DNA from: Candidatus Tagabacteria bacterium
GTDB taxonomy: Bacteria; Patescibacteriota; Minisyncoccia; GCA-002779875
Direction: 5' to 3'
Assembly (NCBI GenBank): GCA_963820595.1
Contig: CAWGAO010000008.1
Location: 9,857-73,856, forward strand
DNA length: 64,000 nt
Below are positions 1,694-63,200 of this stretch, piece after piece. The notes beneath the pieces were generated by a model. That model ran no database searches and was not told where the DNA came from. It saw nothing but the letters and a program-made list of their open reading frames with translations. Every line of letters starts with the position of its first letter. Position 1 is the first letter of the stretch. The translations under genes and the position numbers were made by a program.

Positions 1694-1772
1694 CTTGACC
1701 CCGTTAGAGGCAAGACGCCTTTGGCGTCTGCCGCATTTTCAATGCGGGCCTCTAACGGGGTTGACAAATTTT
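1694..1772 (+). mobile_element. MITE-like palindromic element (ccccgttagagg...cctctaacgggg) ending in outward TTGACA
   Basis: terminal inverted repeats; family of >=7 copies in window. Confidence 0.5.
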
Positions 1773-4862: not shown

Positions 4863-5047
4863 GCCATAATTATATGAACGCTAGTGAATAATAATTTTCG
4901 CACCCCGCCTCTAACGCTTGCGCTCTTTTTATTAAATGATTATCTTGATATTTGCTTCATAATTTTTGTTTAAATTCGTGATAGAGGGCGGGTAAAGGTT
5001 TGGCAACAGAATTTTTCGCCTACGGCTCAAAATTCTGTCCAATTCGC
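4863..5047 (-). repeat. mosaic intergenic module (leader box at rpmC ATG; arms caccccgcctctaacgc / gatagagggcgggt; 3' hairpin)
   Basis: direct reading. Confidence 0.65.
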
Positions 5048-5467
5048 TTAATCTCTCGCAATGATTTTTGTTTTAATGGGAAGTTTTGCCGCGGCTTTTC
5101 GAAGGGCTTCGCGAGCTAAATTTTCCGGAATGCCGTCGATTTCAAAAAGCATCCGTCCCGGCTTAACCGGAACGACATAGCCAGCCGGGTCGCCTTTTCC
5201 GCCGCCCATAGTTACTTCCGGCGGCCGCTGGGTAATGGGTTTGTCCGGGAAAATGCGAATCCACATTCTTCCGCTTTTCTGGACGTAGCGAGTCATAACT
5301 TTTCGAACTGCCTCAATTTGCTGGCTGGTAATCCATTTTTCGCCTTCCGACTTAAGCCCGAAAGAGCCAAAAGCAAGAGTGGTCCCCCGGGTTGCCACTG
5401 TCGGCTTTGCGCGATTTGTCCTCCCGCGCTGCCATTTTCTGTATTTTACTTTCTTTGGATACAGCAT
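5048..5467 (-). CDS. rplP: 50S ribosomal protein L16 (start taken at MLYPKKVKYRK)
   Basis: ...KYRKWQRGRTNRAKPTVATRGTTLAFGSFGLK... canonical L16. Confidence 0.85.
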   Translation of the reverse strand: MLYPKKVKYRKWQRGRTNRAKPTVATRGTTLAFGSFGLKSEGEKWITSQQIEAVRKVMTRYVQKSGRMWIRIFPDKPITQRPPEVTMGGGKGDPAGYVVPVKPGRMLFEIDGIPENLAREALRKAAAKLPIKTKIIARD

Positions 5468-5621: not shown

Positions 5622-6176
5622 TTGTCCAGACATTATGAAAATAAAAAAAGACTCCGCCATTCTCGCAACCGCGGGGAAAAATACGATTCTCATCATCCTT
5701 ATCCGAATTCCAGGACGAAAAAAGGAGATTTTGGAAAATTCGAAGAGCTCCTTTGCTCATTAGAACTGAATACCCTGAAGAAAAAACACAGAGCCTGGCA
5801 CCAATTATTTCTCAATTTTTTTCCCGAAGAAGTGATTTTGGCGATAAAAAAAGCTTTCAGGGCGGGGAAAAAGACTCCTCCCGAAATAATCTCTTTTATC
5901 AAGACTACTCTCGGCCACAGCCAAACTCCGATTGAAGCGACCAAGGCGGATCTGGAAGCCTGGTCCAAGATATTCGGCGCTCGCCAAAACCCGGATAAAA
6001 TTAAGAAAATCATTTTTGAAAACTGGACTTATCCCGACGTCAGAACCATTATCACTAACGGCAAAATTACCAGCGTACTGGTCTTTCTCCCTCGCATACC
6101 AAAAGACCTTGAAATCAGCGTCATCGTTTCCAAAAAAAGCGCGCATTTAAAAATCAGCGAAAAAATTAAAACTTGA
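5622..6176 (+). CDS. hypothetical protein (184 aa), TTG start with SD ggacggagg
   Basis: best-supported ORF among overlapping candidates; no recognisable domain. Confidence 0.4.
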   Translation: MSRHYENKKRLRHSRNRGEKYDSHHPYPNSRTKKGDFGKFEELLCSLELNTLKKKHRAWHQLFLNFFPEEVILAIKKAFRAGKKTPPEIISFIKTTLGHSQTPIEATKADLEAWSKIFGARQNPDKIKKIIFENWTYPDVRTIITNGKITSVLVFLPRIPKDLEISVIVSKKSAHLKISEKIKT

Positions 6177-6223
6177 TAAAGTTTTAAAAAAGAGCGGCCA
6201 ACCATTGAGACGCTCTTTTCTAT

Positions 6224-6598
6224 TTATATCTTTTTCTCTTTCTCCCATTTTTTTTCAAGGCGGGCGATTGCCGCTTCGCCGAATCCGAAATGATGGCCGA
6301 TTTCGTGCCAAACCACTCTGCGGACCATCCGCCTCAATTCTTCAATATCGTGAACGCTCTTTTCGATTGTTGTTTTATAAATAGTGATTTTATCGGGCAA
6401 AACCATATAATAATTCACTCCACGCTGTGTTTGAGGAATACCATGGTAAAGCCCGAGAAGATTTCTTCCCGGCGCTTCGCCTTCTTCCAAAACTATCGCC
6501 ACATTTTTCATTTTCTTCCGAATGGATTTCGGCAACGCTTCCACCGCCTCAACAACTAATTTTTCGAATTCGTCTTTATCCATAAAATCAATCGGCAT
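6224..6598 (-). CDS. zincin-like metallopeptidase family protein (HEIGHHFG motif)
   Basis: WHEIGHHFGFGE motif near C-terminus, ~124 aa, resembles the small 'possible zinc metallopeptidase' family. Confidence 0.6.
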   Translation of the reverse strand: MPIDFMDKDEFEKLVVEAVEALPKSIRKKMKNVAIVLEEGEAPGRNLLGLYHGIPQTQRGVNYYMVLPDKITIYKTTIEKSVHDIEELRRMVRRVVWHEIGHHFGFGEAAIARLEKKWEKEKKI

Positions 6599-10904: not shown

Positions 10905-10965
10905 TTTGACTTTAGGGCACTAAATTGCTAGGAACTAAAGAGAAGAAATCTTTTCAGCCAAAGGC
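10905..10965 (+). promoter_or_regulatory. P2 conserved promoter/5'UTR box
   Basis: tttgactttagggcactaaattgctaggaactaaagagaagaaatc. Confidence 0.5.
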
Positions 10966-12482: not shown

Positions 12483-12644
12483 TTAATTTGGGCGACTTAG
12501 CGGAAAGAGCTGGAACTCATTATTTCCTTCAATGCCCTCTTAGAACTTGACAAGAACTTTTGGCTTAATATAATTCATTTGAATCACGATAAGAGGCTAT
12601 CCAAAGGGTTTCGTCCCACGGCAATGCCTCTTTTTTTTATCTTG

Positions 12645-12700
12645 ACTCCCGGCTGTCAAATTGCTAGGAATAACTGAGAAATTTCTTTGAAATACGGAGG
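12645..12700 (+). promoter_or_regulatory. P2 conserved promoter/5'UTR box
   Basis: cttgactcccggctgtcaaattgctaggaataactgagaaatttctttgaaatacggagg. Confidence 0.5.
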
Positions 12701-13034: not shown

Positions 13035-13259
13035 AAAACCGTTCAAAAGCCCTTCGGGGCTTTTTGCTTTTGAGAATTTAATTTGGGTCGCATAGTAGAG
13101 GACGTTAGAACTGTAATCCAGCGACAGCAGGGGTATATTTATATCCCAGATTTAAAACCGACAATGATGAAGATATAACCTATCCTACCCCGCTACTAAC
13201 TATTTCAAAAGGACGGGGTTCGTGATTGATTTTTTAATTAAAGGCTCTACACTTTGGAT

Positions 13260-13883
13260 ATGAAAACATACGCCTTCATAGATGCCTCAAATCTTTTTTA
13301 CGGCGGCGAGAAAAGTCTCGGTTGGAAAATAGACTATAAGAAACTTTTGGAATATCTAAAAGAGAAATACAGCGTTAGCCACGCTTTTTATTTTGGTGGC
13401 GTAGAGATACATAATTTTGAATATGATTACCAAAAAAACGATACTGTTCCGCTCAACGAACTTGAAAAACACCTCAAAACTTTGATTAGTAATGAAGGGT
13501 CAAAGTTAAACGAAGCCGAGCTCTTACTTATCGGACGGCATTTACAAAGAGTTCGCTTTTACCAACGCCTCAATAGCTTTGGCTATAAATTATACCTGAA
13601 ACCAGTTAAACTCTATGACCAAGAGGACGGCACGACTAAGAGAAAAGCTAATTGTGATGTCGATATGGCTTTCCACCTTATGAAGGAAAAAGATAACTTT
13701 AATAGTGCTGTCATTTTATCTGGGGACGGAGATTTCTTGCCAGTGTTAAAATATCTCAAAACTAATAGTAAAGATATGATTATATTGGGTAGGAGCGAGA
13801 GGGCAGCTAAAGAAATTAAGCAATTTGCAGGGAGCAATTTCAAAGACTTTCAATATCTTAGAGAACGCCTCAAAATGGCCTAA
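13260..13883 (+). CDS. NYN-domain (LabA-like) protein, probable RNase
   Basis: AFIDASNLFYGG N-terminal motif and ILSGDGDFLPVL motif typical of NYN/LabA. Confidence 0.65.
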   Translation: MKTYAFIDASNLFYGGEKSLGWKIDYKKLLEYLKEKYSVSHAFYFGGVEIHNFEYDYQKNDTVPLNELEKHLKTLISNEGSKLNEAELLLIGRHLQRVRFYQRLNSFGYKLYLKPVKLYDQEDGTTKRKANCDVDMAFHLMKEKDNFNSAVILSGDGDFLPVLKYLKTNSKDMIILGRSERAAKEIKQFAGSNFKDFQYLRERLKMA

Positions 13884-14145
13884 AAAAACGAAAAGCACCC
13901 ATTTAGGATGCTTCTCACGTTTAGTATCTCCACTATAGCAAGCTGGTTTTTATTGTCAATATCCACTTTTACCCTACCCCGCTACTCACTATTTCTTCGG
14001 AGAAAAACGGGGTGGGCTACGGGACGCATTCAGAACCCTGGATTGGATACAGGTTAGGAAAGAGTTGGATGATTTCGCCTTGCATTTTGAACAACAATTT
14101 GCTATAAATAACTGAGAAAATTCCTTGAAAAGGAGGAAAAGATTG

Positions 14146-17640: not shown

Positions 17641-17731
17641 GTGCTATTCTTTGGCCAGAAAAATTAAGCTGTTTGATCTTTGTAAAGCATAAAAACCTCA
17701 AAATAAAATATCAAGATTGGAGGGATTTAAG

Positions 17732-18877
17732 ATGGATTTTGAATTAAATGAAGAACAAAAACTGATCCAAAACAGCGTCAGAGATTTTGTAAAAAAGGAA
17801 ATCGCGCCCATTGCGGACGAAATCGACAAGAAAGACGAATTTCCGAGCGAAATAGTGCAAAAGATGGCTGGCCTGGGAATACTAAGTATCCCTTTACCGG
17901 AAGAATTTGGCGGAATGGGCGGCGACATCTTAAGTTATGTTTTAGCCCTCGAAGAAATATCTAAAGTTTCTGTGGCGGTAGCAATTACCGTTGCCGTCCA
18001 CACATCTCTTGTTTCCGCTCCGATTAACGAATTCGGAAACCGGAACCAAAAAGAAAAATATCTTGTGCCGCTGGCAAAAGGCGAAAAATTGGGGGCGTTT
18101 CTGCCTGACAGAACCTAATGTCGGCTCTGACGTCGGCTCCATAGAAACAACCGCCGAATTCAAAAAGACATGACCATTACCTCTTGAACGGAACAAAGAT
18201 TTTCATAACAAACGGCGGAGTGGCCGAAACTTATCTTGTTTTTGCCGCAACCGACAACCAGGAAAAAAAGCCGAAAAGATTGAGCGCCTTCATTATCGAA
18301 AAAGGGATGCCGGGGTTTTCTTTCGGCACCCGATACGAAAAAATGGGTTGGCGAGGCTCTGAAACCCGCGAGCTTATTTTTGAAGACGTGAAAATTCCTC
18401 TTGAGAATTTGTTGGGCCAGCGAGGCGACGGATTTCTCGAGGCGATGAAAATTTTGGACGGCGGGAGAATCAGCGTCGCGGCATTATCTCTCGGTTTGGC
18501 CGGCGGAGCCTTGGAAGCCGCCTTAAAATACGCAAAAACACGGCGGCAATTTGGGAAAACTCTTGCCGAATTTCAGGCAGTCCAAATTTTGCTTGCCGAT
18601 ACGGCGACGGAGATAGAAGCTGCCAGATATTTAATCTGGAAAGCTATTCAGCTTAAAGAAAAAAACAAACCGTATCGTAAAGAAGCGGCGATGGCAAAAC
18701 TTTTCAGCTCGGAAATGGCCGTAAGAACAGTTTCAAAAGCTCTCCAAATCCACGGAGGCTCCGGATACATGAAGGATTCTCCGGTGGAACGATTCTACGG
18801 GATGCTAAGGTGCTGGAAATTGGTGAAGGCACTTCGGAAATCCTTCGGTTGCTAATTGCCAGTGAATTAAGAAATTG
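17732..18877 (+). CDS. acyl-CoA dehydrogenase, 3 apparent single-nt frameshifts
   Basis: ...GAF/CLTEPNVGSDVGS... and ...ERFY/RDAKVLEIGEGTSEILRLLIASELRN recovered by frame changes; one clearly a TTT/TT homopolymer. Confidence 0.75.
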
Positions 18878-18889
18878 AGAAAAAAGTAA

Positions 18890-18990
18890 TCAGAAGCCGG
18901 TGGATCCCGTTAGAAGTCCGCATTAAATATGCGGCAGATATTGAAAACATCTTACTTCTAACGGGATGGACATCACCGGCTTTTTTGTTT
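18890..18990 (+). mobile_element. MITE-like hairpin element (cccgttagaagt...acttctaacggg) with outer stem and T-run
   Basis: same terminal repeats as family at 30554, 30731, 38491. Confidence 0.5.
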
Positions 18991-22159: not shown

Positions 22160-22285
22160 GTAGTCCCGATAATTCTAAATTTGAATTATCGAGGATCCTC
22201 GATTTTCTAGCGAAAATCGGGATGAAATGGACCCCGAAGTATAAACCTTCGGTTTAACTACGGGGCAGGTATCACTTAAAAATAA
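22160..22285 (+). ncRNA. structured leader upstream of tRNA-Arg (three-way stem arrangement, shares aactacggggcaggt with repeat family at 1440/58380)
   Basis: outer stem cccctgtagt/actacgggg enclosing two hairpins; preceded by TTGTCA-16-TAAAAT. Confidence 0.35.
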
Positions 22286-22286
22286 T

Positions 22287-22360
22287 GCGCCCTTAGCTCA
22301 ATGGATAGAGTACTGGTCTTCGGAACTGGTGATAGGGGTTCGAATCCGTCTAGGGGCGCA
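22287..22360 (+). tRNA. tRNA-Arg (TCG), T-arm irregular
   Basis: acceptor gcgccct/ggggcgc, D-arm, anticodon loop CTTCGGA, GGTTCGAATCC box; T-stem does not pair cleanly. Confidence 0.6.
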
Positions 22361-23903: not shown

Positions 23904-24044
23904 AAGAACGCGGGCTGGAGTCCCGACGCGCTTCGCGGTCGGGGTCCCGACTGAAACGTCGGGATATGATGGCATCCCCGAAGGAGTCGCCTTCGGCGAC
24001 CCTACGGGGAAAATCGGGACACGCCACGCCCGCCCACCTTTTAT

Positions 24045-24118
24045 CGGGGAATAGTATATCGGTAGTACGCACGCTTCGGGTGCGTGAAGGCCGGGTTCGA
24101 TTCCCGGTTCCCCGACCA
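24045..24118 (+). tRNA. tRNA-Pro (CGG) with encoded CCA
   Basis: CGGGGAA acceptor, anticodon loop TTCGGGT, GGTTCGATTCC, 3' TTCCCCG-A-CCA. Confidence 0.8.
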
Positions 24119-27793: not shown

Positions 27794-29093
27794 TCAAAAT
27801 TTTCCGGCACAAGGGCCGTCAAAGTATAATTTTGCGCCGAAATATTTTTGCGCGACTCGCCTTATCGCCTCTCGGGAAATTTTACTGATATATTCCCTGT
27901 AATTTCGCGGGTCAAAAATGTTTTTTCTGAAATAAGCGTCAGAAAGATATTTGGCTCGTGTTCCCAATTTTTCCAGATTATCGTCTTCTCTGGAAAGAAA
28001 GAGATTTTTCGCCCGTAAAAATTCCCGCTTACTTACTAAATTGGTTTTTAAATCTTCCAGTTCTTCCAGATATGGCATTTTTGCCTCTTTGAATCGGCGG
28101 GGATCAAAACCTCCCACCGTGATATAAAAAACGCCAATACCGCCATAATCGTCATAAATGCTTTCCAATTCATCGTATCCGATTCCCTTTCCTCTTCGCA
28201 GTGCTTTAGGAAGCCGAGATGACATTCCTCCGGAAAGAATTGATTCAAGAAGAAAAAATTTAAAAGAATCGGGATGGCTAAAACCAGGAACTCTATATCC
28301 CAAGGCCATATAAGCCAGTTTCAAACCCTTTCTTTTTTTAGGCGGGGGTTCTCGGCGTCTGTTCCTCAGATCAATTTTATATTCCGGTGCCTCAAAAGTT
28401 TGTCGCTTCAATCTGCCAAAAGTTTTATCGATCGTTTTTAAAACTCCTCTCCTCGTCAAATTTTCCGCAGACAAAAATGGTCATATTTTCCGGCACATAA
28501 AATTTCTTTTTAAAAGCAATTATTTCCTCTTTGGTAATACGCTTTACCGATTTAGGAGTGCCGAGAATCGGTTTTTCCGCACAAGTTTTTCTTAAAAGAA
28601 CAGGGATAAAAAGATGTTCAAGATAATGTTCTTTCGGCGAATCAATCGATTTTTTAATTCGGTAAGAATTTCCTCGACGCTCCCGCTCAATTTCTTCTTC
28701 TTTATATTCAAAATTCTGATTGTTTCGTAGACATATCCTGATGTTTTTGGAAAGATAGCGGGGATATCCTTGGATGTAAAAAATAGTGGAATCAAAATCA
28801 GTGCCGGCGCTTATCTGGGCTCCGCCGTCTTCCACATCTTCAGTAATCTCATCGGCAGCTACGGAAACGGGATTCGAATGGATATTCGAAGTGACTGATT
28901 CCTGTTCATAAAATGACTTATTCCGCTCATTTCTTCCGTTTCGTCCCTGACGCCGAACACCGACTCCGACCAAAAAAATCAACTTTCTTGTATTCCGGCA
29001 ATTCTTCCAAAAAAACAGTAAGACCATTGAGAAGAAGAATTTTTTTGATTCCGCTGATATGGTCTTTCTCGAGAAATCCGACGCGAGGCATTT
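27794..29093 (-). CDS. M16-family (pitrilysin-like) zinc peptidase, 1-2 apparent frameshifts
   Basis: HYLEHLFI (HxxEH inverted zincin motif); SD ggagg + ATG at 29093. Confidence 0.65.
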
Positions 29094-29135
29094 TTTCACC
29101 TCCTTCCGCTAATTTTTATATTTCAAAAAACTTAT

Positions 29136-30500
29136 CTACTGGATAGTATAAAAACAAAAATCCCGTCCCGCAATTTGACGGGACGGGATTAATTCTGTTT
29201 GATTTTTAAAAATTTTACGGCCAAAGGCCTCTTGCTGAGCGGCTTCGGCTACCCGACCAACGCCCAAAAGATAAGCCGCCAAACGGGTAGTGATTTTCTT
29301 CCCATTTTTTTCGTAGATATCAACCACGCTCTTAAAAGCCTTATCCATGATTTTTTTCAACTTTTCGTTGACATCCGCTTCTTCCCAATAAAGTTCCTGG
29401 ATATTCTGGACCCATTCAAAATAAGAAACCGTCACTCCGCCGGCATTTGCCAGAATATCGGGGATAACAAAGATTCCTTTTTGATGCAAAATATCATCCG
29501 CCTCAAGCGTTGTCGGCCCATTTGCGCCTTCCGCAATAATCTTTGCCTTGATTTGCGGCGCATTATCGGCAGTAATGGCGTTTTCCAAAGCGCAAGGTGC
29601 GAGAATGTCGCAAGGCAAAAGCAATAAATCATCGTTTGAAATCTGGAAAGATCCTACAGTTAGAATTGACATAATTTACAACTGAACCATTCGCTTTTTT
29701 GACCTTTAAAACTTCATCTACATTAAGACCAGCGGGATTACAAATCCCACCCCCAGCTGTCGGAAACAGCGATAATTTTCACTCCTTCATTTTGAAGCAG
29801 TTTTGCCGTCCAATAGCCGACATTGCCGAATCCCTGAACCACTGCTGTTGCGGTTTTCGGATCAATTCCCAGATAATTCATCGCCTGCAAAGCGGTATAC
29901 ATACAGCCGCGGCCGGTTGCCGCTTCTCTTCCGAGAGAACCGCCATCACGCTAAAGGTTTGCCGGTTACCACTCCCGGACAAGGATGGCCGAGCAAGCAT
30001 GGAGTAAGTATCCATAATCTCCGCCATTCTTTTAGCATTTGTTCCTACATCAGGAGCGGGAATATCTTTATCCGGGCCAATGATGTGAGATATGGCGTAA
30101 GTGTATCTTCGTGTTAAATTCCGCAATTCGTCTTCTGACATTTCTTTCGGATTGCAGATAATTCCTCCCTTGGCTCCGCCAAAAGGAACATTCACAACTG
30201 CGCATTTCCAAGTCATCCACATTGCCAATGCCTTAACTTCATCCAAATTAACATCCGGATGATAACGTATGCCTCCTTTAGCCGGTCCCCGCGCAAAACT
30301 GTGCTGTACGCGATAGCCCGTAAAAACTTTAACATGGCCATCATCCATTTTCATAGGAAGAGGAACTTCAAAAATGTTAGCGGGCCCCCGGATAGAAAAT
30401 CTGGTTTCTTCATCTAACTTCAAAAAATCTGCTGCTCGGTCGAATTGCTCTAATGCTGTTAGATAAGGATTCTGTTTATTGTGTTTGTTTTTCCTGGCAT
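29136..30500 (-). CDS. gdhA: glutamate dehydrogenase, 2-3 apparent frameshifts
   Basis: [15 protein letters not shown] and C-terminal GDH blocks found on three frames. Confidence 0.75.
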
Positions 30501-30553
30501 ATCTTTCTACCTCCTTGTAGAATTAGTGCTTAGCATCTCCGGCAAGCCCCGTT

Positions 30554-30657
30554 AGAAGTTCAACTATAGCTTGAGATTAAGCATCCTCCGAAAGCGAATC
30601 CGCCTAATGGCTCTATCTCTAACTAAAATATAATTTATTGAAAACCTCTAACGGGGC
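30554..30657 (+). mobile_element. MITE-like palindromic element, tandem copy 1
   Basis: ccccgttagaag...cttctaacgggg termini; internal aagcgaatccgcctaatggc. Confidence 0.55.
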
Positions 30658-30730
30658 AAGCGCAATTATTTATCATTATTTTGTAAAAGATTTAATCCAA
30701 CCATATTCTAGAACCTGCTTTTTTAATGTC

Positions 30731-30852
30731 AACCCCGTTAGAAGTTCAGCTATGGTCTGGAGTTAAGCAACCTCCTAAAGCGAATCCGCCTAACGGCTTT
30801 GTTTTTAAATAAAATATGGGTTAGATGAAAACTTCTAACGGGGTCAACCCCC
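30731..30852 (+). mobile_element. MITE-like palindromic element, tandem copy 2 (~90% identical to copy 1)
   Basis: same termini and internal block. Confidence 0.55.
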
Positions 30853-30863
30853 TGTCCGCTGTT

Positions 30864-33394
30864 TTATAGCCCCTGTAAATCCTGGCTGGTAAACTCGATT
30901 TTTGAGCCCCGATCGACCTTGCCCGCGATTATCCACTCTGCTATTTTTTTCTCGACTCGGTCGGTAATGGCGCGTTGCATCGGCCGCGCTCCGAAAACCG
31001 GGTCATATCCGATTTCGGCAACCTTATCAAGAAGAACATCGTTAATAACTAAATCAATTTCTTTTTGCGCAAGTAGGCGTTTTCTCAATTTTTCAAGCAT
31101 TAATTTCGCGATTGTTTTTAAATTCTCTCGGCTCAAATGGCGGAAAATGATAATCGCGTCAAAACGGTTTAAAAGCTCCGCCTTGAAAGTGCCCGCTTTT
31201 TGAATCGAATCGATTACCGCTTCTTTCAAGGCGGACGGGTCAACTCCCTTTTTTCCCATTTCCCAAATCAGCTGCGACGCTGCGTTCGAAGTCGCAATGA
31301 TGATGTTGTTGCGCGTAAAAACTTTTTTACCGAAAGCATCGGTGAAAAATCCCTCATCAAGAATCTGTAAAAACAAATCCATTACCTTCGGGTGGCATTT
31401 TTCAAATTCATCCAAAAGCAGAAGCCCGTACGGCCGCTCGCGCAATTTTGAAGCCAAGAGCCCCGGTTCGTTTTTTTCAAACGAGCCGATCAAGCGCTCA
31501 AGGCCGTTTTCATTCTGATACTCGCTCATGTCAAACCGAAGCATTGCTTCTTCGTTTCCGAAATATATCTCCGCCAGAGCTTTGGCGGTTTCGGTTTTTC
31601 CGACGCCGGTGGGACCAAGAAAAAGAAACGAACCAAGGGGCTTTTTTGTTTCCTGCAATCCCGTTCTCACTCTCCGCACCGCCGCGCTGATTGCCGAAAT
31701 CGCTTCTTCCTGGTCAACGACCCGCTGATGAAGAATTTCTTCCAAATGCAGTAATTTTTCTTTTTCTTCCGGCAGCAACGCCCCGAGCGGCATTTTTGTT
31801 TTCAGGCTGACCAGCGCCGAAATGTCATCCGGAGTAATAATCGCCCTGCCCTGGCCGGAAACTTGGGCGCTCACGGTTTCCAAAATATCAATAGCCCGCT
31901 CCGGCAGGCGCCTTCGGTCAAATAAGTAGTGGATGCATTCGCGATTTCACGGATAGTCTGAAACAGAAATATAACGCCTCTCGTTCCTTCGAGCTCCAAT
32001 GAAACGTCTTCGAGGATTTCGAAAAGTTCTTTGCTGTCGGGTTCTTCGACTCTGACGATTTCGAAATACTGCATCAAGGAACTGTCCGATTCCAGATACC
32101 GCTTGAATCCGCCGGAATCGGAAATGGCGATAACCTGCAAATAATTGCTGGCGAGGTAAGGCGAAACTACTTGAGTTAAAGAAACTCCGAGCGCTTCAGC
32201 CGATTTCAAAAACTCCGCGAAATTATCAATAACCAAAATAATGTTGCCGGCGCGAACGGCGTCATTAAAAAGACGGATGATAAGATTTTCCAAGTCGCCC
32301 TTGGTTTTGGCGGAAGCGACGAGCGCGCCGGCATCGAGCTCGAGCAAACGCTTGAATTCCAGTTCCGGCCTTATCCTTCCGCGTTTAATCATTTCGCCGA
32401 AACCGGCCACGACGGTCCGCTTCCCTACGCCCGGCTCGCCGACAATCAAAACATTTGCTTGAGCGGTACGGGATAAAATCGCCTCAATCGCCTCAATCTG
32501 TTTCTGGTGGCCCGTAAAATGCAAAGCCTTATGTTCGACGGAAAAATCGGCCCCTTGGGAAAAAGGCGTCGCGTAACGGTCTAAAAGATAAGTGGCGGCA
32601 TTCGCCCAATCTTTGGCAATGCCCTGGATTCGAGCAAGATTTTCTTCCAGCCACCAATGCGACACTTTTTCTTTTTTTTGAGAAAGCTCGCTTGCCCATT
32701 CAAGGACGCCGCCGATATCCTCTTTTTTAATCTTCATTTCAAAAAAGAATTGGAAAAGATTCTCATCTTTTTCCAATATCGCCATAATCACGTCGCTTGC
32801 GCCCACTTCCTGTTTATTTTTTGACCGCGCTTCTTTTAAAATATCTTCGAAAAGCGGCAGCGGGCTTTCTTTTATCGCCTCGTCGGAAAAATTCTTATTG
32901 AGAGTGTCGAGAAAATCTTTGGCGTCAAGACCGAGATGCAGAAAAGAAAATTTTCCGATTTCGGTTTCGGTAAAAGTCTTGAGAATGTTCGGCCCGGAAA
33001 TAAATTTGCGGCGATAAACGGTTTTAGAAATAAGGGAGGCGGCTTCAAAATCCAAATAGTCGGCGATGTTTTGCGATTCCTTAGGAACGAATTCGAGATT
33101 GGATTTCGAACGATAAAAACTCTCAAGCGAAAAAATAACCAGCCTGAAGGCGAGAATCAGGAAAACAAAATCAGTAATCTTTTTCTGAAGCACCAAATTG
33201 TCTATGCCCTTTATCAAACCGGGTTTCAGCACGGAAAGCGCGGCGATGGCGAGAATGGATAATACGATAAGTATGTCAAAAAATTTCGCGAGTCCGCGGC
33301 GAATTTTTTTCGGGAACGCGTTATCAAGCCAAAGCACGGAAGCGAATCTGCTTTTCTTTAAATCGAAATTAAATTGTCCGGCATCATTCAACAT
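30864..33394 (-). CDS. Clp/Hsp100-family double AAA+ ATPase with N-terminal transmembrane segment, one apparent frameshift near 31875
   Basis: two Walker A sites (GEPGVGKRT, GPTGVGKTE); N-terminal 100 aa contain two hydrophobic helices. Confidence 0.65.
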
Positions 33395-38490: not shown

Positions 38491-38618
38491 TGTTTACCCC
38501 GTTAGAAGTTTTTAACAAAACACATTTTAAGAAAAACTAAAGCCGTTAGGCGAATTCGTTCCCTTAAAAGGTCATATTATTTAAAGCCCTACTTGAACTT
38601 CTAACGGGGTATGTGCTA
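38491..38618 (-). mobile_element. MITE-like palindromic element, inverted orientation
   Basis: cccgttagaag...cttctaacgggg with rc of internal conserved block. Confidence 0.55.
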
Positions 38619-45193: not shown

Positions 45194-46388
45194 ATGGCAG
45201 AAAAATTTGAAAGGACAAAGCCGCACGTAAACGTCGGCACAATCGGCCACGTTGACCACGGCAAAACCACTTTGACCGCCGCTCTTTTGCACGTGCTTAA
45301 TTTGGCGGGCAATAAAGTTAAAATGGAAGGCGTCAATGACATCGACAACGCGCCCGAAGAAAGACAGCGCGGCATTACCATTGCCCTTCACCACTCGGAA
45401 TACGAAACTCCGAAAAGGCACTATGCCCACATCGACGCTCCGGGCCACGCAGACTACATCAAAAACATGATTACCGGAGCCGCTCAAATGGACGGCGCTA
45501 TTCTGGTCGTTTCCGCTGCCGACGGCGCAATGCCCCAGACCCGAGAACACATTCTTTTGGCCCACCAGGTCGGCGTTCCGGCAATCATTGTTTTCCTGAA
45601 TAAAGTCGACACGGTTGACGACAAAGAATTGGTTGATTTAGTTGAAGCGGAAATCCGCGAGTTGCTTACAAAATACCAATATCCCGGAGACAAAACTCCT
45701 ATTATTCGCGGTTCGGCTTTAAAGGCGCTTGAGGCAAAATCAGTCGATGACGAATGGGCAAAACCAATCTTGGAACTTGCCAAACAACTTGGACGAATAC
45801 ATTCCTGAACCGGTGCGTGAAATCGATAAACCGTTTTTAATGCCCATTGAAGATATTTTCTCAATCGAAGGTCGCGGAACGGTTGTTACGGGCCGCATTG
45901 AACGAGGCAAAATAAAACTTAGCGATGAAGTTGAAGTAGTCGGCTTACGCCCCACTCAAAAAACAGTAGTTACCGGAATTGAAATGTTCAATAAATCCCT
46001 GGATGAAGGATTGGCGGGCGATAACGCCGGGATATTACTTCGAAGTCTCAAAAAAGAAGACGTGGAACGCGGCCAAGTTTTGGCCAAACCAGGCTCCATT
46101 ACTCCACATACCGAATTTCAAGCCGAAATTTATATCTTGACCAAAGAAGAAGGCGGCCGCCACACGCCGTTTTTTGCGGGCTATAAACCGCAATTTTATC
46201 TTCGCACAACCGACGTGACCGGAGCCGTTACCCTTCCGGAAGGCACTGAAATGGTTATTCCGGGCGACACGATTTCATTAAAAGTAGAACTTTTGGCGCC
46301 CGTTGCTCTGGAAGAGAAACAGCGATTCGCGATTCGCGAAGGAGGAAAGACCGTCGGCGCAGGAGCCATAACAAAAATCATAAAATAA
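45194..46388 (+). CDS. tuf: elongation factor Tu, one apparent single-nt insertion near 45785
   Basis: [13 protein letters not shown]...; after -1 shift [34 protein letters not shown]...; cttggacg vs expected cttgacg. Confidence 0.9.
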
Positions 46389-46440: not shown

Positions 46441-46516
46441 TTGACCCCGTTAGAGATAGAGTTTTTTAGAAACTCGACGGATATCTTCGGATATCCTATC
46501 TCTAACGGGGTTGAAA
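46441..46516 (+). mobile_element. MITE-like palindromic element ending in TTGAAA, forming promoter for rpsJ
   Basis: gaccccgttagagatagag...ctctatctctaacggggTTGAAA-16-TAAAAT-6-ATG. Confidence 0.5.
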
Positions 46517-46544
46517 TAAAACATTGAAAATCTAAAATATTAAA

Positions 46545-47093
46545 ATGGTAACCGCCAAAAAAACTGCACCTGCCCGTCTCCGCTCCTCCTCTGCTAAACC
46601 TGCCCGTCCGGCAGGCGGGGCTACGGCGGACAAGAAAAGCTACGACGGACAAGAAAAAAAGAAAACGGCGCATTCGAGCGCGCCAACGGCCAAGCCCGTG
46701 AAAAAAATCGCTAGACCCGCGGCAACAAAACTCGTTTCCGAAAAACCAATTTTTATCCCTAAACCGGGAAAGAGCGAAGTCGAGGAAAAACCGAAACTTC
46801 GCATTCGAGTGCGGGCTTACGACCACAAAATCTTAGACATCAGTATCAAGCAGATTGTGGACACGGTATTGCGCAACGGAGCGGAAATAACCGGTCCGAT
46901 TCCCTTGCCGACAGAGATACGTAAATACACGGTAAACCGATCCAGCTTTGTTCATAAAAACGCCAGGGAGCAGTTTGAAATGCGGATCCATAAGAGACTT
47001 ATAGATATCCTTAATCCCGGCCCAAAAATTATCGATGCGCTGACAAATCTGAATTTGCCCGCCGGCGTCGACATAGAAGTTAAGATGAGTTAA
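46545..47093 (+). CDS. rpsJ: 30S ribosomal protein S10 with ~83-aa Ala/Pro/Lys-rich N-terminal extension
   Basis: ...[15 protein letters not shown]... S10 core at C-terminal 100 aa. Confidence 0.85.
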
Positions 47094-51526: not shown

Positions 51527-52213
51527 ATGAATAAAAATCAATCTTATCAAAATTTTATCCAGCTATCACCATCTGCACTCTCTCTTTATATGGAATGTCC
51601 GAAATGCTTTTGGCTTCAAAAAATAAACGGAATCCACAGACCGAAGCAAATTTTTGCGATTCAAAACAACTTCGACAGGATTTTAAAAATCTATTTCGAC
51701 AATTTTCGCGAAGGAGACAACCTGCCGCCGGAACTAATTGGCAAAGTCGAAGGCAAACTTTTCGCCGATAAAGAGTTGCTTGAAAAATGGAGGAACGCCC
51801 TAAAGCCAACTCTCAAATACCGCCATCCCGATTATCCCGATTTCGGTCTGGCGGGAGGGCTGGACGACTGTTTGTTCGACGGAAAATATTACATTCCCAT
51901 TGATTTTAAAACCACGGGCAGTTCGAGTTTCGAGGAAAATTCCGAAAAATATTACCAGCATCAACTCGACATCTATAATTTCCTTTTAGAAGAAAACGGC
52001 TACAAAACAAGGGGTATCGCTTACCTCGTTTATTATAAACCCGAAGAAGTTGTCGGCGAAGGCACGATAAAATTCCAGATTGTCGTTAAAAAAATGGAAA
52101 CCGACCATAAGCGCGCTCTCCGGCTATTCGAAGATGCTATTGAACTGCTCCAGGGACCTATGCCCAAAAGCCATTCCGAATGCGAGTATTGCGCTGGGCG
52201 AACGACTTCATAG
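51527..52213 (+). CDS. PD-(D/E)XK nuclease superfamily protein, Cas4/RecB-like with N-terminal Cys and C-terminal CxxC
   Basis: YMECPKCFW N-terminal Cys, IPIDFKT D-x-K block, C-terminal CEYC. Confidence 0.55.
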   Translation: MNKNQSYQNFIQLSPSALSLYMECPKCFWLQKINGIHRPKQIFAIQNNFDRILKIYFDNFREGDNLPPELIGKVEGKLFADKELLEKWRNALKPTLKYRHPDYPDFGLAGGLDDCLFDGKYYIPIDFKTTGSSSFEENSEKYYQHQLDIYNFLLEENGYKTRGIAYLVYYKPEEVVGEGTIKFQIVVKKMETDHKRALRLFEDAIELLQGPMPKSHSECEYCAGRTTS

Positions 52214-58379: not shown

Positions 58380-58645
58380 CCCCGGCACCAATTTTGCGTG
58401 ATATTTCACGGCGAAGCGCTCCCCGAAGTATCCGCCTCCGGCGGAACTACGGGGCAGGTCGCCCTAACTCTAGTGGCTACTTGCCCCGCATAATCGCGTA
58501 GCGATTTGTGCGGGGTTCGCCGCACGCGCTTCGCAAAAATTGTTCTTATTTCCCGCCTATAAAGCGCCTAGCAACAAAAAAGTGGCAAAATTGATGCGGG
58601 GTGCCCAAAAATTATAGTCGTTTCACTCCTTAATTTTTGGCAAAT
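58380..58645 (+). repeat. degenerate module (no ATG at leader end) whose spacer carries copy B of the GC-rich structured repeat
   Basis: arms accccggcaccaattttgcg / gcaaaattgatgcggggtg; leader ends ggcaaata instead of ggcatg. Confidence 0.55.
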
Positions 58646-61906: not shown

Positions 61907-63127
61907 ATGATTTCCAAAGAATTCATTGCGAAAATTGAAGGGCATGGCAGTATTCATGTCGATTGGGATAAAAATGAGGCGAAATTGAAAATTCTTGAAG
62001 GAGAACGGCTTTTTGAAGGAATACTTGAAGGAAGAACCGCCGAAGAGGCTCACTGGATAACGCCGAGAATTTGCGGAGTTTGCCCCATCGCCCACAATCT
62101 CGCGTCCGTTTTTGCCTGCGAAAATGCGCTCGGAATAACGCCGAACGAGACAACGCTCCTTTTGCGAAAACTTATGCTGGCCGGACAAATGATTCAGAGC
62201 CATTTCCTGCATCTGTTTTTTTTAGCCCTGCCAGATTACATCGGCATCGACCGCGGCACGGAATTAAACAAAAAAAATCCCAAAGCCTTCCAAATGGCCT
62301 TGGACCTCAAAGAAGTTTCCGACGAAATTGCCCAAACTGTCGCCGGAAGGAATGTTCACCCGACAACCACGACTGTCGGCGGGTTTCACAAATTACCCAC
62401 AAAAGAATCGCTCGAAAACTTACTGGAATTACTTAAAAAAACGCGGAAGGCCGCCGAAAACACGGTGAAACTTTTTGAAAAATTAGAATATCCACAATTA
62501 AAAGTGGATTTGGAACTAGTTAGCCAAAACGGAAACAAAATCGTTTCGAATAAAAACGACGAATCTTTAATTAAAGATTATAAAAAAGATATCGAAGAAG
62601 AAGTAAAAGATTATTCAACCGCAAAATTCGGCCGCTACAAAACACGGGAAATAATGGTCGGCGCCCTGGCTCGAATAAATAATTTTGACACGGGAAAAAA
62701 ATCCGGTCTCGATTACCAAAATCCGTTTCACAATAATCTTGCTCAAGCTATTGAAATTCTCCTGTACCATAACCAAGCCGAGGATTTAATCAACCAGCTG
62801 TTATCAAGCGGAATGGATGACAAAATCGGCGTGAAACCCTTCGACTCCGCTCAGGGCAAGCCGGAAGGAATTCAGGCGCCACTTGTCGGCATCGGCGCAG
62901 TTGAAGCCCCAAGAGGCGGGCTTTATCATGAATTCCATTTCAACGAAAAAGGAATCATTGCTTACGCGAACATCATTACTCCGACCGTCCAAAATCTGAC
63001 ATCCATTGAAAAAAGCGCCAACGCGCTTCTCGAACAACACAAAAACCAGCCGCTTGAAGAAAAAAAGCGCCTTCTGGAAATGCTTGTTCGGGCCTATGAC
63101 CCCTGCATCACCTGCGCCGTGCATTGA
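61907..63127 (+). CDS. hydA: [NiFe]-hydrogenase large (alpha) subunit
   Basis: N-terminal RICGVCPIAH and C-terminal DPCITCAVH Ni-binding motifs. Confidence 0.8.
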   Translation: MISKEFIAKIEGHGSIHVDWDKNEAKLKILEGERLFEGILEGRTAEEAHWITPRICGVCPIAHNLASVFACENALGITPNETTLLLRKLMLAGQMIQSHFLHLFFLALPDYIGIDRGTELNKKNPKAFQMALDLKEVSDEIAQTVAGRNVHPTTTTVGGFHKLPTKESLENLLELLKKTRKAAENTVKLFEKLEYPQLKVDLELVSQNGNKIVSNKNDESLIKDYKKDIEEEVKDYSTAKFGRYKTREIMVGALARINNFDTGKKSGLDYQNPFHNNLAQAIEILLYHNQAEDLINQLLSSGMDDKIGVKPFDSAQGKPEGIQAPLVGIGAVEAPRGGLYHEFHFNEKGIIAYANIITPTVQNLTSIEKSANALLEQHKNQPLEEKKRLLEMLVRAYDPCITCAVH

Positions 63128-63134
63128 TTCCGCT

Positions 63135-63200
63135 AAGAGGCCCGCATTAGAAATGCGGCAGGCATCAAAGACGCCTTTCCTCTAAACGGAATTGACATAA
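63135..63200 (+). mobile_element. MITE-like element variant (cgctaagagg...cctctaaacgg) ending in TTGACA-16-TATACT
   Basis: alignable to rc of 1694-1772 copy. Confidence 0.45.

Follow-up and report, generated by a model that had tools for sequence, protein, structure and literature searches.

What is the short repeat that lies in two neighboring copies between gdhA and a Clp ATPase gene of a “Candidatus Tagabacteria” bacterium, and does it supply half a promoter to the genes beside it? The DNA analyzed (here, the window) comprises 64,000 nucleotides of contig CAWGAO010000008.1 (positions 9,857 to 73,856; GenBank assembly GCA_963820595.1). An earlier inspection of the letters alone (here, the original prediction) had described a family resembling MITEs (short for miniature inverted-repeat transposable elements) with at least seven copies, several of which were thought to donate a −35 box. 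We found that these repeats are very probably small, noncoding, nonautonomous mobile DNA elements of the MITE or foldback type, which duplicate a 4-base T-N-N-A target (here, the TNNA-family). Among the features shown here are the family's ends, its 4-bp duplication and preferred target, an empty site, insertions that keep the reading frame of conserved proteins, and a broad taxonomic range; comparison with the empty site indicates that the element lands in preexisting −35 hexamers, which the duplication regenerates.

Copies in the window and the adjoining −35 boxes

By a combination of 12-mer, paired-end, and inverted-repeat analysis, seven copies were located in the window, in agreement with the original prediction; the positions given there were off by 2 to 15 nt, but the copies are real (Table 1; each copy is named here by its first position). 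The 12-mer CCCCGTTAGAAG, allowing at most one mismatch, occurs 10 times, always in inverted pairs, versus 0.29 occurrences expected by chance in the 64 kb. A paired-end pattern search retrieved six elements, and none in 100 shuffles, and the seventh, degenerate copy (63128) was detected via inverted-repeat analysis of the window. The ends of the family are YCCCGTTAGARRY and its reverse complement, which form a perfect stem of 12 to 13 bp. Devoid of coding capacity and 62 to 113 nt long, the window copies fall into two size classes: four short, Y-shaped copies (62 to 66 nt) and three long copies (110 to 113 nt). For the short copies, a 13-bp terminal stem bearing two hairpins of 6 to 7 bp is predicted, with z-scores of −5 to −9 relative to shuffles; the hairpins of copy 46445 have no sequence in common with those of copy 1699, and the architecture is identical. 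The long copies also hold an internal GCCTAACGGC. Two of them (30547 and 30733) had been described as a tandem pair about 90% identical over about 120 nt; they are indeed neighbors, but they lie 76 bp apart and are 81% identical over 111 aligned positions. The third long copy (38497) is 71 to 72% identical to the other two. A scan of the whole window against Rfam at the gathering thresholds returned tRNAs only, and a permissive scan of positions 30400 to 30950 gave nothing above noise. Many housekeeping open reading frames (ORFs) of the window (tuf, clpB, and gdhA) are split in this assembly, and indel errors may affect local details.

In six of the seven copies, identical tetramers (TTGA in three cases and TCAA, TGGA, and CAAG in one each) stand on either side, just outside the terminal Y...R pair of the element, as a perfect 4-bp direct repeat. 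Such target-site duplications (TSDs), the 13-nt terminal inverted repeats, the presence of several noncoding copies in 64 kb, and a presence/absence polymorphism relative to a close relative (see below) bear out the MITE-like classification. Four copies are placed at promoter −35 boxes, one in a terminator loop, one in a 5′ untranslated region, and one in the spacer between a terminator and a gene. In the terminator, which comes after the acyl-CoA dehydrogenase ORF, removal of copy 18905 together with one TGGA, as read from the sequence, restores GCCGGTG-GACAT-CACCGGC-TTTTTT.

According to the original prediction, four copies end in a −35 hexamer and thus appear to act as portable halves of promoters. 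Three of these hexamers exist (beside copies 1699, 46445, and 63128), each 16 nt from a TANNNT sequence, but the presumed fourth, at 18967, is a TGGACA inside the terminator hairpin. The true fourth hexamer, which had gone unnoticed, is a TTGACA on the minus strand that faces gdhA and adjoins copy 30733. None of the hexamers is an element end. Because TTGA stands on both sides of each such copy, the hexamer is composed of one TSD copy (its first four bases) and native flank (its last two), and the last bases of the element itself are ...CGGGG or ...CGGGA. In other genomes, different T-N-N-A tetramers, e.g., TGAA, TAAA, and TGGA, stand beside this element.

Relatives of the clp-gdhA locus were found by scanning metagenome contigs with the C-terminal ORF of the window Clp ATPase. 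In three of them (L121, L126, and L196), in which Clp shows 82 to 86% amino acid identity to the window protein, the clp-gdhA spacer has no element and reads GGAG-TTGA-CATTTAAAAAAACGGGTTCTAAGAT...AAGGAGGTAGAAAATATGCC. On the same strand, the window reads GGGG-TTGA-(111-nt element)-TTGA-CATTAAAAAAGCAGGTTCTAGAAT, followed by the second element and then by AAGGAGGTAGAAAGATATGCC. The empty-site relative carries an intact promoter, TTGACA-N17-TAAGAT, in this spacer; since a full promoter is already present at the homologous place where no element exists, the −35 box was not donated by the element, and the gdhA promoter with its −35 box predates the insertion, which split the TTGA that the duplication then restored. 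Across genomes, 39 element flanks start with TT[GT]A, and in these TANNNT peaks at a spacing of 16 to 17 nt (12 cases). It is very improbable that the element brings along half a promoter, in the form of a terminal −35 box, and switches on the downstream genes at every landing site. The TTGACA or TTGAAA that stands 16 nt from TANNNT next to four window copies would fit such a role, as would the promoters that Correia elements of Neisseria carry according to PMC10969869, but the duplicated TTGA, the varied tetramers, and the empty site contradict it, and the asymmetric interior of the element adjoins genes in both orientations (see below).

The family across genomes, at start codons, and within genes

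A collection of public genomes, one per species, was scanned with the pattern CCCGTTAGAR...YTCTAACGGG and an interior of 39 to 99 nt; as 10 exact bases were demanded per end, the conservation of those positions is imposed by the search. The pattern matched at least 120 loci (8-kb pieces of each genome), from which the element counts used below (143 and 141) derive, and the family is clearly not restricted to the window but very widespread, with these ends being present in many uncultured bacterial phyla. Among the matches listed, about 76 loci belong, by record title, to the Candidate Phyla Radiation (CPR)/Patescibacteria (Saccharibacteria, Paceibacterota, Nomura-, Kaiser-, Kerfeld-, and Doudnabacteria, and others), 31 belong to Omnitrophota, Planctomycetota, Deltaproteobacteria/Desulfobacterota, Edwards- and Stahlbacteria, and one Gammaproteobacteria, and 13 are unclassified. 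Viral contigs contributed 12 matching loci only, mostly atypical palindromes without TSDs, and phages are not an obvious vehicle.

The duplication is a general property of the family. In 143 elements from more than 100 genomes, positions L[−5..−2] equal positions R[+2..+5] in 73 to 83% each, compared with about 27% at other offsets, and the 4-bp TSD is perfect in 86. Its consensus is T (83%)-N-N-A (77%), with a weaker preference for a purine before it and a pyrimidine after it; the commonest tetramers are TGAA (16), TTCA (12), TAAA (10), TTTA (10), TTGA (8), TGGA (6), and TCCA (6). The terminal base pair of the element is T..A in 63 and C..G in 74.

What lies between the ends is far less constrained. 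Interiors are mostly unrelated between genomes (117 singletons in short-word BLAST clustering) and vary freely from a 3-nt loop to about 100 nt, so that elements are 27 to 146 nt long, with modes near 62 to 67, 76 to 78, 100 to 105, and 114 to 120 nt. The usual subterminal feature, beside one end, is an A followed by a 6- to 8-bp hairpin (here, H1; e.g., AGACGCC/GGCGTCT or GGAAATC/GATTTCC), and in the short form H1 is followed by a G and a second hairpin starting with CCG. This asymmetric interior is found in either orientation (H1 is proximal to the gene in 7 cases and distal in 3), a point against any built-in directional signal, and a function that depends on H1 always facing the gene was rejected. 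Minimal hairpins of 27 to 30 nt with TSDs exist (L024, CGAG/CGAG; L083, TTTA/TTTA), as do nested copies (L009, L015, L058, and L108) and back-to-back copies on one common target (L038 and L053).

Start codons are a frequent target. In 52 of 141 elements, the terminal A/G together with the duplicated TG.. forms the ATG or GTG that opens an ORF of 100 to 723 codons, and in 41 of these 52 the other TSD copy keeps an ATG as well. Upstream of this left ATG, a TANNNT starts at a distance of 12 to 17 nt in 31 of the 52 (i.e., a −10-like hexamer 6 to 11 nt upstream), and a motif resembling a Shine-Dalgarno (SD) sequence is present in only 7. The arrangement resembles that of leaderless or very-short-leader genes hit at positions +2 to +5. 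The start codon of dnaA carries an element in two Saccharibacteria (L018 4321-4395 and L052 ~6165-6284); because the duplications (TGGA versus TGAA) and the interiors differ, the two insertions are independent. In a third genome (L068 ~4166), dnaA is SD led and has no element. The length of the start-codon copies is a multiple of three in 27 of 52 (the other classes hold 13 and 12). In 17 copies, an upstream ORF that begins at the left ATG stays open up to the gene ATG: in 13 of them it terminates at the TAA within the end repeat, 4 nt short of the gene ATG, and in the other 4 at an ATGA overlap. An additional copy is an in-frame read-through into the gene. These 18 open copies compare with a mean of 7.5 (standard deviation, 2.4) for shuffled interiors, 10 of 52 for the antisense strand, and 37% for non-start elements. 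Coupling of the upstream ORF to the gene in a fixed frame shows only a modest excess over the controls.

Of 89 non-start copies, 42 have a combined length of element and duplication that is divisible by three. Long ORFs contain at least eight copies, which add a PVR...SNG peptide to them; the window itself has no intragenic copy. The seven hosts identified, all in other genomes, are SecA, IF-2, ExoIII, TrpF, RsmH, Sua5, and a HypE-like protein. The in-frame inserts are 10 to 35 amino acids long, and only their PVR and SNG ends are conserved. In the ExoIII homolog, a clean 27-amino-acid insert, aligned on both sides, is evident relative to PDB 2voa (chain residues 96 and 96 are contiguous across the gap), and RsmH has a comparable insert relative to PDB 1m6y, so that empty sites are seen at the level of proteins as well.

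A few loci fall outside the usual form. In distant Clp relatives, an element with variant ends, CCCGTTAAAAG...TTTATAACGGG, is found right after the clp stop codon (L136 5013-5136 and L137 3836-3959), and the family is therefore broader than the exact scan pattern. In a Saccharibacteria metagenome-assembled genome (L102 4972-5059), a complete tRNA-Thr(CGT) gene (4981-5052) is located exactly between two element ends, which lengthen its acceptor stem, and a partial tRNA-like copy with the same right end comes after this unit. Either the element may be able to transport cargo, or a tRNA gene may have been captured by it. A tRNA origin of the interiors in general was rejected: L102 is the only locus in which a tRNA gene is enclosed, and in L056 a tRNA merely abuts an element end. 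Two viral contigs (L208 6246-7066, L211 8384-9204; 62% GC) contain arrays of short palindromes, CCCGTTAGAACGATCGTTCTAACG, about 55 to 70 nt apart and without flanking duplications, which might represent a repeated operator that has no more than the core sequence in common with the family.

Mobilization and alternative explanations

The element inserts in T-N-N-A, often within R-TNNA-Y and presumably at a 4-nt staggered cut, whereby the four bases are duplicated. The terminal Y/R base of the element mimics the outer target base, so that the target hexamer is largely rebuilt on both sides. Because of this rebuilding, an insertion into a −35 box (G-TTGA-CA) leaves a working TTGACA beside the native spacer and −10, and an insertion into a start codon (A-TGAA-T) leaves an intact ATG in frame with the gene. 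Mobilization would presumably be effected in trans by a transposase that makes 4-nt staggered cuts, and the element would fold as a hairpin in the transcript. In start-codon copies, translation from the duplicated first ATG might enter the left arm of the stem and open it; opening by a short upstream reading frame could then allow re-initiation at the second ATG, that of the gene, for which the excess of open frames lends modest support.

No transposase, integrase, or recombinase was recognized among 40 window ORFs scanned against Pfam (about 10 of these ORFs have no Pfam match at all), in line with the absence of a transposase noted in the original prediction. The partner search that it had called for was carried out as well and gave no autonomous element with these ends, whether in the window, in the element-bearing loci (about 0.9 Mb), or in the loci of relatives (0.5 Mb); nor did a search for longer elements, based on unpaired ends and on degenerate end pairs 300 to 4000 bp apart with matching TSDs, reveal one. 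The unpaired ends in the loci are decayed or nested copies. All-against-all BLAST clustering of neighboring ORFs gave no enzyme candidate; the recurrent neighbors belong to housekeeping families, namely, type IV pilus ATPase, Mur ligase, epimerase, ABC transporter, and Hsp70. In the window, an ORF for a PD-(D/E)XK nuclease (51527-52213, plus strand) directly follows rpsC in the ribosomal-protein gene cluster. Its sole homolog among the loci (L087 2936-3589; 30% identity) lies about 160 nt from an element; it may be regarded as a candidate nuclease, but this is a single coincidence.

Several observations weigh against the reading as a MITE or foldback element. Besides the missing partner, copy 38497 is the one window copy without matching flanks, its TSD being either decayed or absent. 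For a MITE, it is unusual that the same 10-nt end recurs in several phyla, as transposase-specific ends normally diverge between lineages. Elements of 27 nt cannot easily join two ends as double-stranded DNA, which may indicate that a folded single strand is recognized and that transposition is not of the classical DDE type. Ten Y-shaped copies taken from different genomes were aligned, and 16 of 25 pairs show compensatory double changes, but these ten sequences were picked for their Y-shaped folding, which biases the count towards structure. It is conceivable, though unlikely, that a structure-specific enzyme (a HUH/RAYT-like one, a tyrosine recombinase, or a nuclease acting with a ligase), and not a classical DDE transposase, moves the same mobile hairpin in folded, single-stranded form. 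The minimal copies with TSDs, a stem and H1 kept via compensatory changes between free interiors, the invariance of the stem across phyla, and the failure to find a transposase in the loci searched would all be consistent with such a route. However, the known hairpin-recognizing systems (IS200/IS605, REP/RAYT, and integron attC) are not known to make TSDs, whereas a 4-bp TSD is the rule here, and the minimal copies could be internal deletions that arose after insertion. Similarly doubtful is the suggestion that mobile copies at leaderless start codons have been co-opted as a module of translational control, composed of the hairpin and a short upstream ORF from the duplicated ATG. It is favored by the large share of elements that abut start codons with −10-like rather than SD-like sequences upstream, by the two independent insertions in dnaA, and by the excess of lengths divisible by three and of open frames. 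On the other hand, open frames are nearly as frequent in the antisense and non-start controls, both orientations occur, and the same pattern could arise without any function if a target preference acted together with purifying selection in such very compact genomes. A broader proposal, to which we likewise attach little weight, would unite these features: a hairpin family defined by its 13-nt stem may cross phyla via a stem-recognizing mechanism, possibly host encoded, that cuts T-N-N-A with a 4-nt stagger and prefers the first codons of leaderless genes, including dnaA; the hairpin and upstream ORF would take part in translation control, and cargo such as the L102 tRNA could be carried.

Explanations that dispense with mobility fare worse. 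A structured RNA family (cis-regulatory or small RNA) maintained by selection on RNA function is a very remote prospect: the predicted folds are very stable and show covariation, and many copies are immediately upstream of start codons, but selection of this kind accounts neither for TSDs, an empty site, and in-frame insertions in SecA, IF-2, ExoIII, TrpF, RsmH nor for the occurrence of both orientations, terminator-loop copies, and nesting, and there is no match to an Rfam family and no relationship between the interiors of different genomes. Integron attC-like recombination sites or gene-cassette boundaries are scarcely credible. The core of attC is GTTRRRY/RYYYAAC, which the stem GTTAGAR/YTCTAAC resembles, and the internal GCCTAACGGC of the long window copies adds to the likeness. 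The anatomy contradicts this identity: GTT is at the inner end of the stem in attC but at the outer one here; the pairing is perfect over 12 to 13 bp, without the extrahelical bases of attC; copies with TSDs are scattered among and inside housekeeping genes; and neither an integrase nor a cassette array was found among the window ORFs scanned. We therefore retain the nonautonomous mobile element as the interpretation of the TNNA-family.

Other features of the window, significance, and comparison with known systems

Two further repeat families exist in the window (Table 1). One, unrelated to the TNNA-family and present in at least 13 copies, has the form GGGCGGGGTGCTCAAAA..TTATAGTCGCTTAACTCCTTAATTTTTGGC-ATG or, as a variant, ...TTCACTAACGTTCATATAATTTTGGC-ATG; many of the copies stop right at a start codon, e.g., those of fusA and several ribosomal-protein genes, and, with TATAAT plus 6 nt plus ATG, it looks like a common leaderless promoter/operator module. 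The other, a palindrome, CCCCGAAG..CTTCGG..CTACGGGG(CAGGT), occurs four times; two of these copies immediately precede tRNA genes (22287-22358 and 24045-24115). Flanking duplications are absent, and the palindrome's ends, CCCCGTAG, are similar to those of the main family. In several housekeeping genes, among them the essential tuf, the coding sequence is broken up into at least two overlapping ORFs in different frames, due to either assembly indel errors or widespread pseudogenization. The rpsJ ORF (46545-47093) encodes 182 amino acids, of which only residues 86 to 180 form the S10 domain, preceded by an N-terminal extension rich in Lys, Ala, and Pro; its ATG lies 6 nt after the TAAAAT hexamer, the start being of leaderless type. 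Copies of a promoter-like segment, TTGACTTTAG..N..AAATTGCTAGAAAT, precede successive small ORFs, and this region may be an array of paralogous genes; local duplications surround an NYN-domain gene.

Table 1. Copies of the TNNA-family and other features of the 64,000-nt window
Feature	Position	Strand	Flanking duplication	Description
Short Y-shaped copy, 62 nt	1699..1760	+	TTGA 1695-1698 / 1761-1764	13-bp terminal stem, two 7-bp hairpins; minimum free energy −44.5 kcal/mol, z −8.6; promoter TTGACA 1761-1766 (right TSD + flank), 16 nt, TAGCAT; upstream of ORF 1830
Short Y-shaped copy, 62 nt	18905..18966	−	TGGA 18901-18904 / 18967-18970	T..A terminal pair; orientation opposite to copy 1699; in intrinsic terminator loop, stem GCCGGTG 18896-18902 / CACCGGC 18974-18980, T-run from 18981
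Long copy, 110 nt	30547..30656	+	CAAG 30543-30546 / 30657-30660	gdhA 5′ untranslated region, between gdhA promoter and gdhA SD/start codon (minus strand, start ~30501)
Long copy, 111 nt	30733..30843	+	TCAA 30729-30732 / 30844-30847	gdhA promoter, minus strand: TTGACA 30732-30727 (left TSD + flank), 16 nt, TAGAAT 30710-30705
Long copy, 113 nt	38497..38609	−	TTTA / TATG, unmatched	Inverted relative to other two long copies; directly after terminator-like hairpin with T-run, upstream of ORF 38661
Short Y-shaped copy, 66 nt	46445..46510	+	TTGA 46441-46444 / 46511-46514	rpsJ promoter: TTGAAA 46511-46516, 16 nt, TAAAAT 46533-46538, 6 nt, ATG 46545; leaderless type
Degenerate short copy, 64 nt	63128..63191	−	TTGA 63124-63127 (overlaps TGA stop of NiFe-hydrogenase ORF) / 63192-63195	Ends TTCCGCTAAGAGG / CCTCTAAACGGAA; 84% complementary to copy 1699 over 50 nt; promoter TTGACA 63192-63197, 16 nt, TATACT
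Second repeat family	42124, 44442, 49817, 58595, 3089, 2364, 50319, 53597	+		
Second repeat family	423, 1011, 4909, 17453, 57144	−		
Third palindromic repeat	1551-1584, 22232-22270, 23976-24014, 58421-58459			
Split gene, tuf	45194-46388			
Split gene, clpB-like	30864-33394			
Split gene, gdhA	29136-30501			
Split gene, M16 peptidase	27794-29099			
Split gene, acyl-CoA dehydrogenase	17717-18855			
Promoter-like segment	8894-8942, 10905-10953, 12641-12689, 14079-14127			
Local duplications	12451-12517/13046-13112; 13084-13167/14828-14911			80% identical; around NYN-domain gene (13254-13883)

CPR/Patescibacteria have tiny genomes, to which little mobile DNA is usually ascribed; the present family is a very small selfish element dispersed through these genomes and through unrelated phyla. 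It occupies the most sensitive positions of genes (−35 box, initial codon, and reading frame), and it survives there because its insertion chemistry, as described above, rebuilds the sequence that it splits. For annotation, this implies that start codons, promoters, and “lineage-specific inserts” of 10 to 35 amino acids in housekeeping proteins of these organisms may be footprints of the element. As a natural experiment, essential genes in which an element separates the leaderless promoter from the ATG could reveal how these bacteria start translation. Because the ends are so strongly conserved, the mobilizing enzyme should be findable by phylogenetic profiling.

The TNNA-family has every structural hallmark of a MITE except a known autonomous partner. 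Like the prokaryotic MITEs (Correia/CREE of Neisseria, ERIC, RUP, and MITEAba12), its elements are short and noncoding, have terminal inverted repeats and TSDs, exist in many copies, and are intergenic, beside promoters, and presumably cotranscribed as hairpins; as for Correia, the mobilizing transposase is not known. The differences are that (i) Correia and RUP duplicate TA, whereas the TNNA-family duplicates the 4 bp T-N-N-A; (ii) promoter hexamers are within the element in the Correia type, whereas adjoining promoter parts come from the target in the TNNA-family; and (iii) the same 10- to 13-nt ends are found in CPR, Omnitrophota, Planctomycetota, and Deltaproteobacteria, with unrelated interiors and copies down to 27 nt. 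A 4-bp duplication of the type T...A and ends starting with CCC are also features of piggyBac/IS1380, which is a lead only. The end of piggyBac is TTAA|CCCTAGAAAGATA, compared with TTGA|CCCCGTTAGAAGT in the TNNA-family, and piggyBac requires TTAA, whereas the middle two target bases are free here. Passages in published papers mention IS1380 alongside piggyBac.

REP/BIME repeats with RAYT and the IS200/IS605-derived PATEs are likewise short hairpin repeats, possibly recognized as folded single strands and mobilized in trans by a single-copy gene. They are not known to make a TSD, and they need a conserved tetranucleotide beside the hairpin, whereas a variable 4-bp duplication is the rule in the TNNA-family. 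The Rickettsia palindromic elements (RPE; Ogata et al. 2000), as outlined in PMC10969869, are palindromic mobile repeats located in frame inside conserved protein genes. The TNNA-family appears to resemble these in the in-frame position within conserved genes, the addition of a peptide that would not destroy the protein, and the lack of a known transposase. However, RPEs are about 150 bp long, limited to Rickettsia, and encode a peptide conserved along its whole length, whereas only the PVR...SNG ends are conserved in the TNNA-family, most copies of which are intergenic or at start codons. Our literature search found no description of the end sequence, of MITEs in CPR, or of TNNA duplications. 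The TNNA-family thus appears to be a new, MITE-like family of unusually wide distribution. Its uncommon traits are identical ends across phyla, free interiors that can shrink to nothing but a hairpin, and the frequency of insertion at the start codons of apparently leaderless genes.

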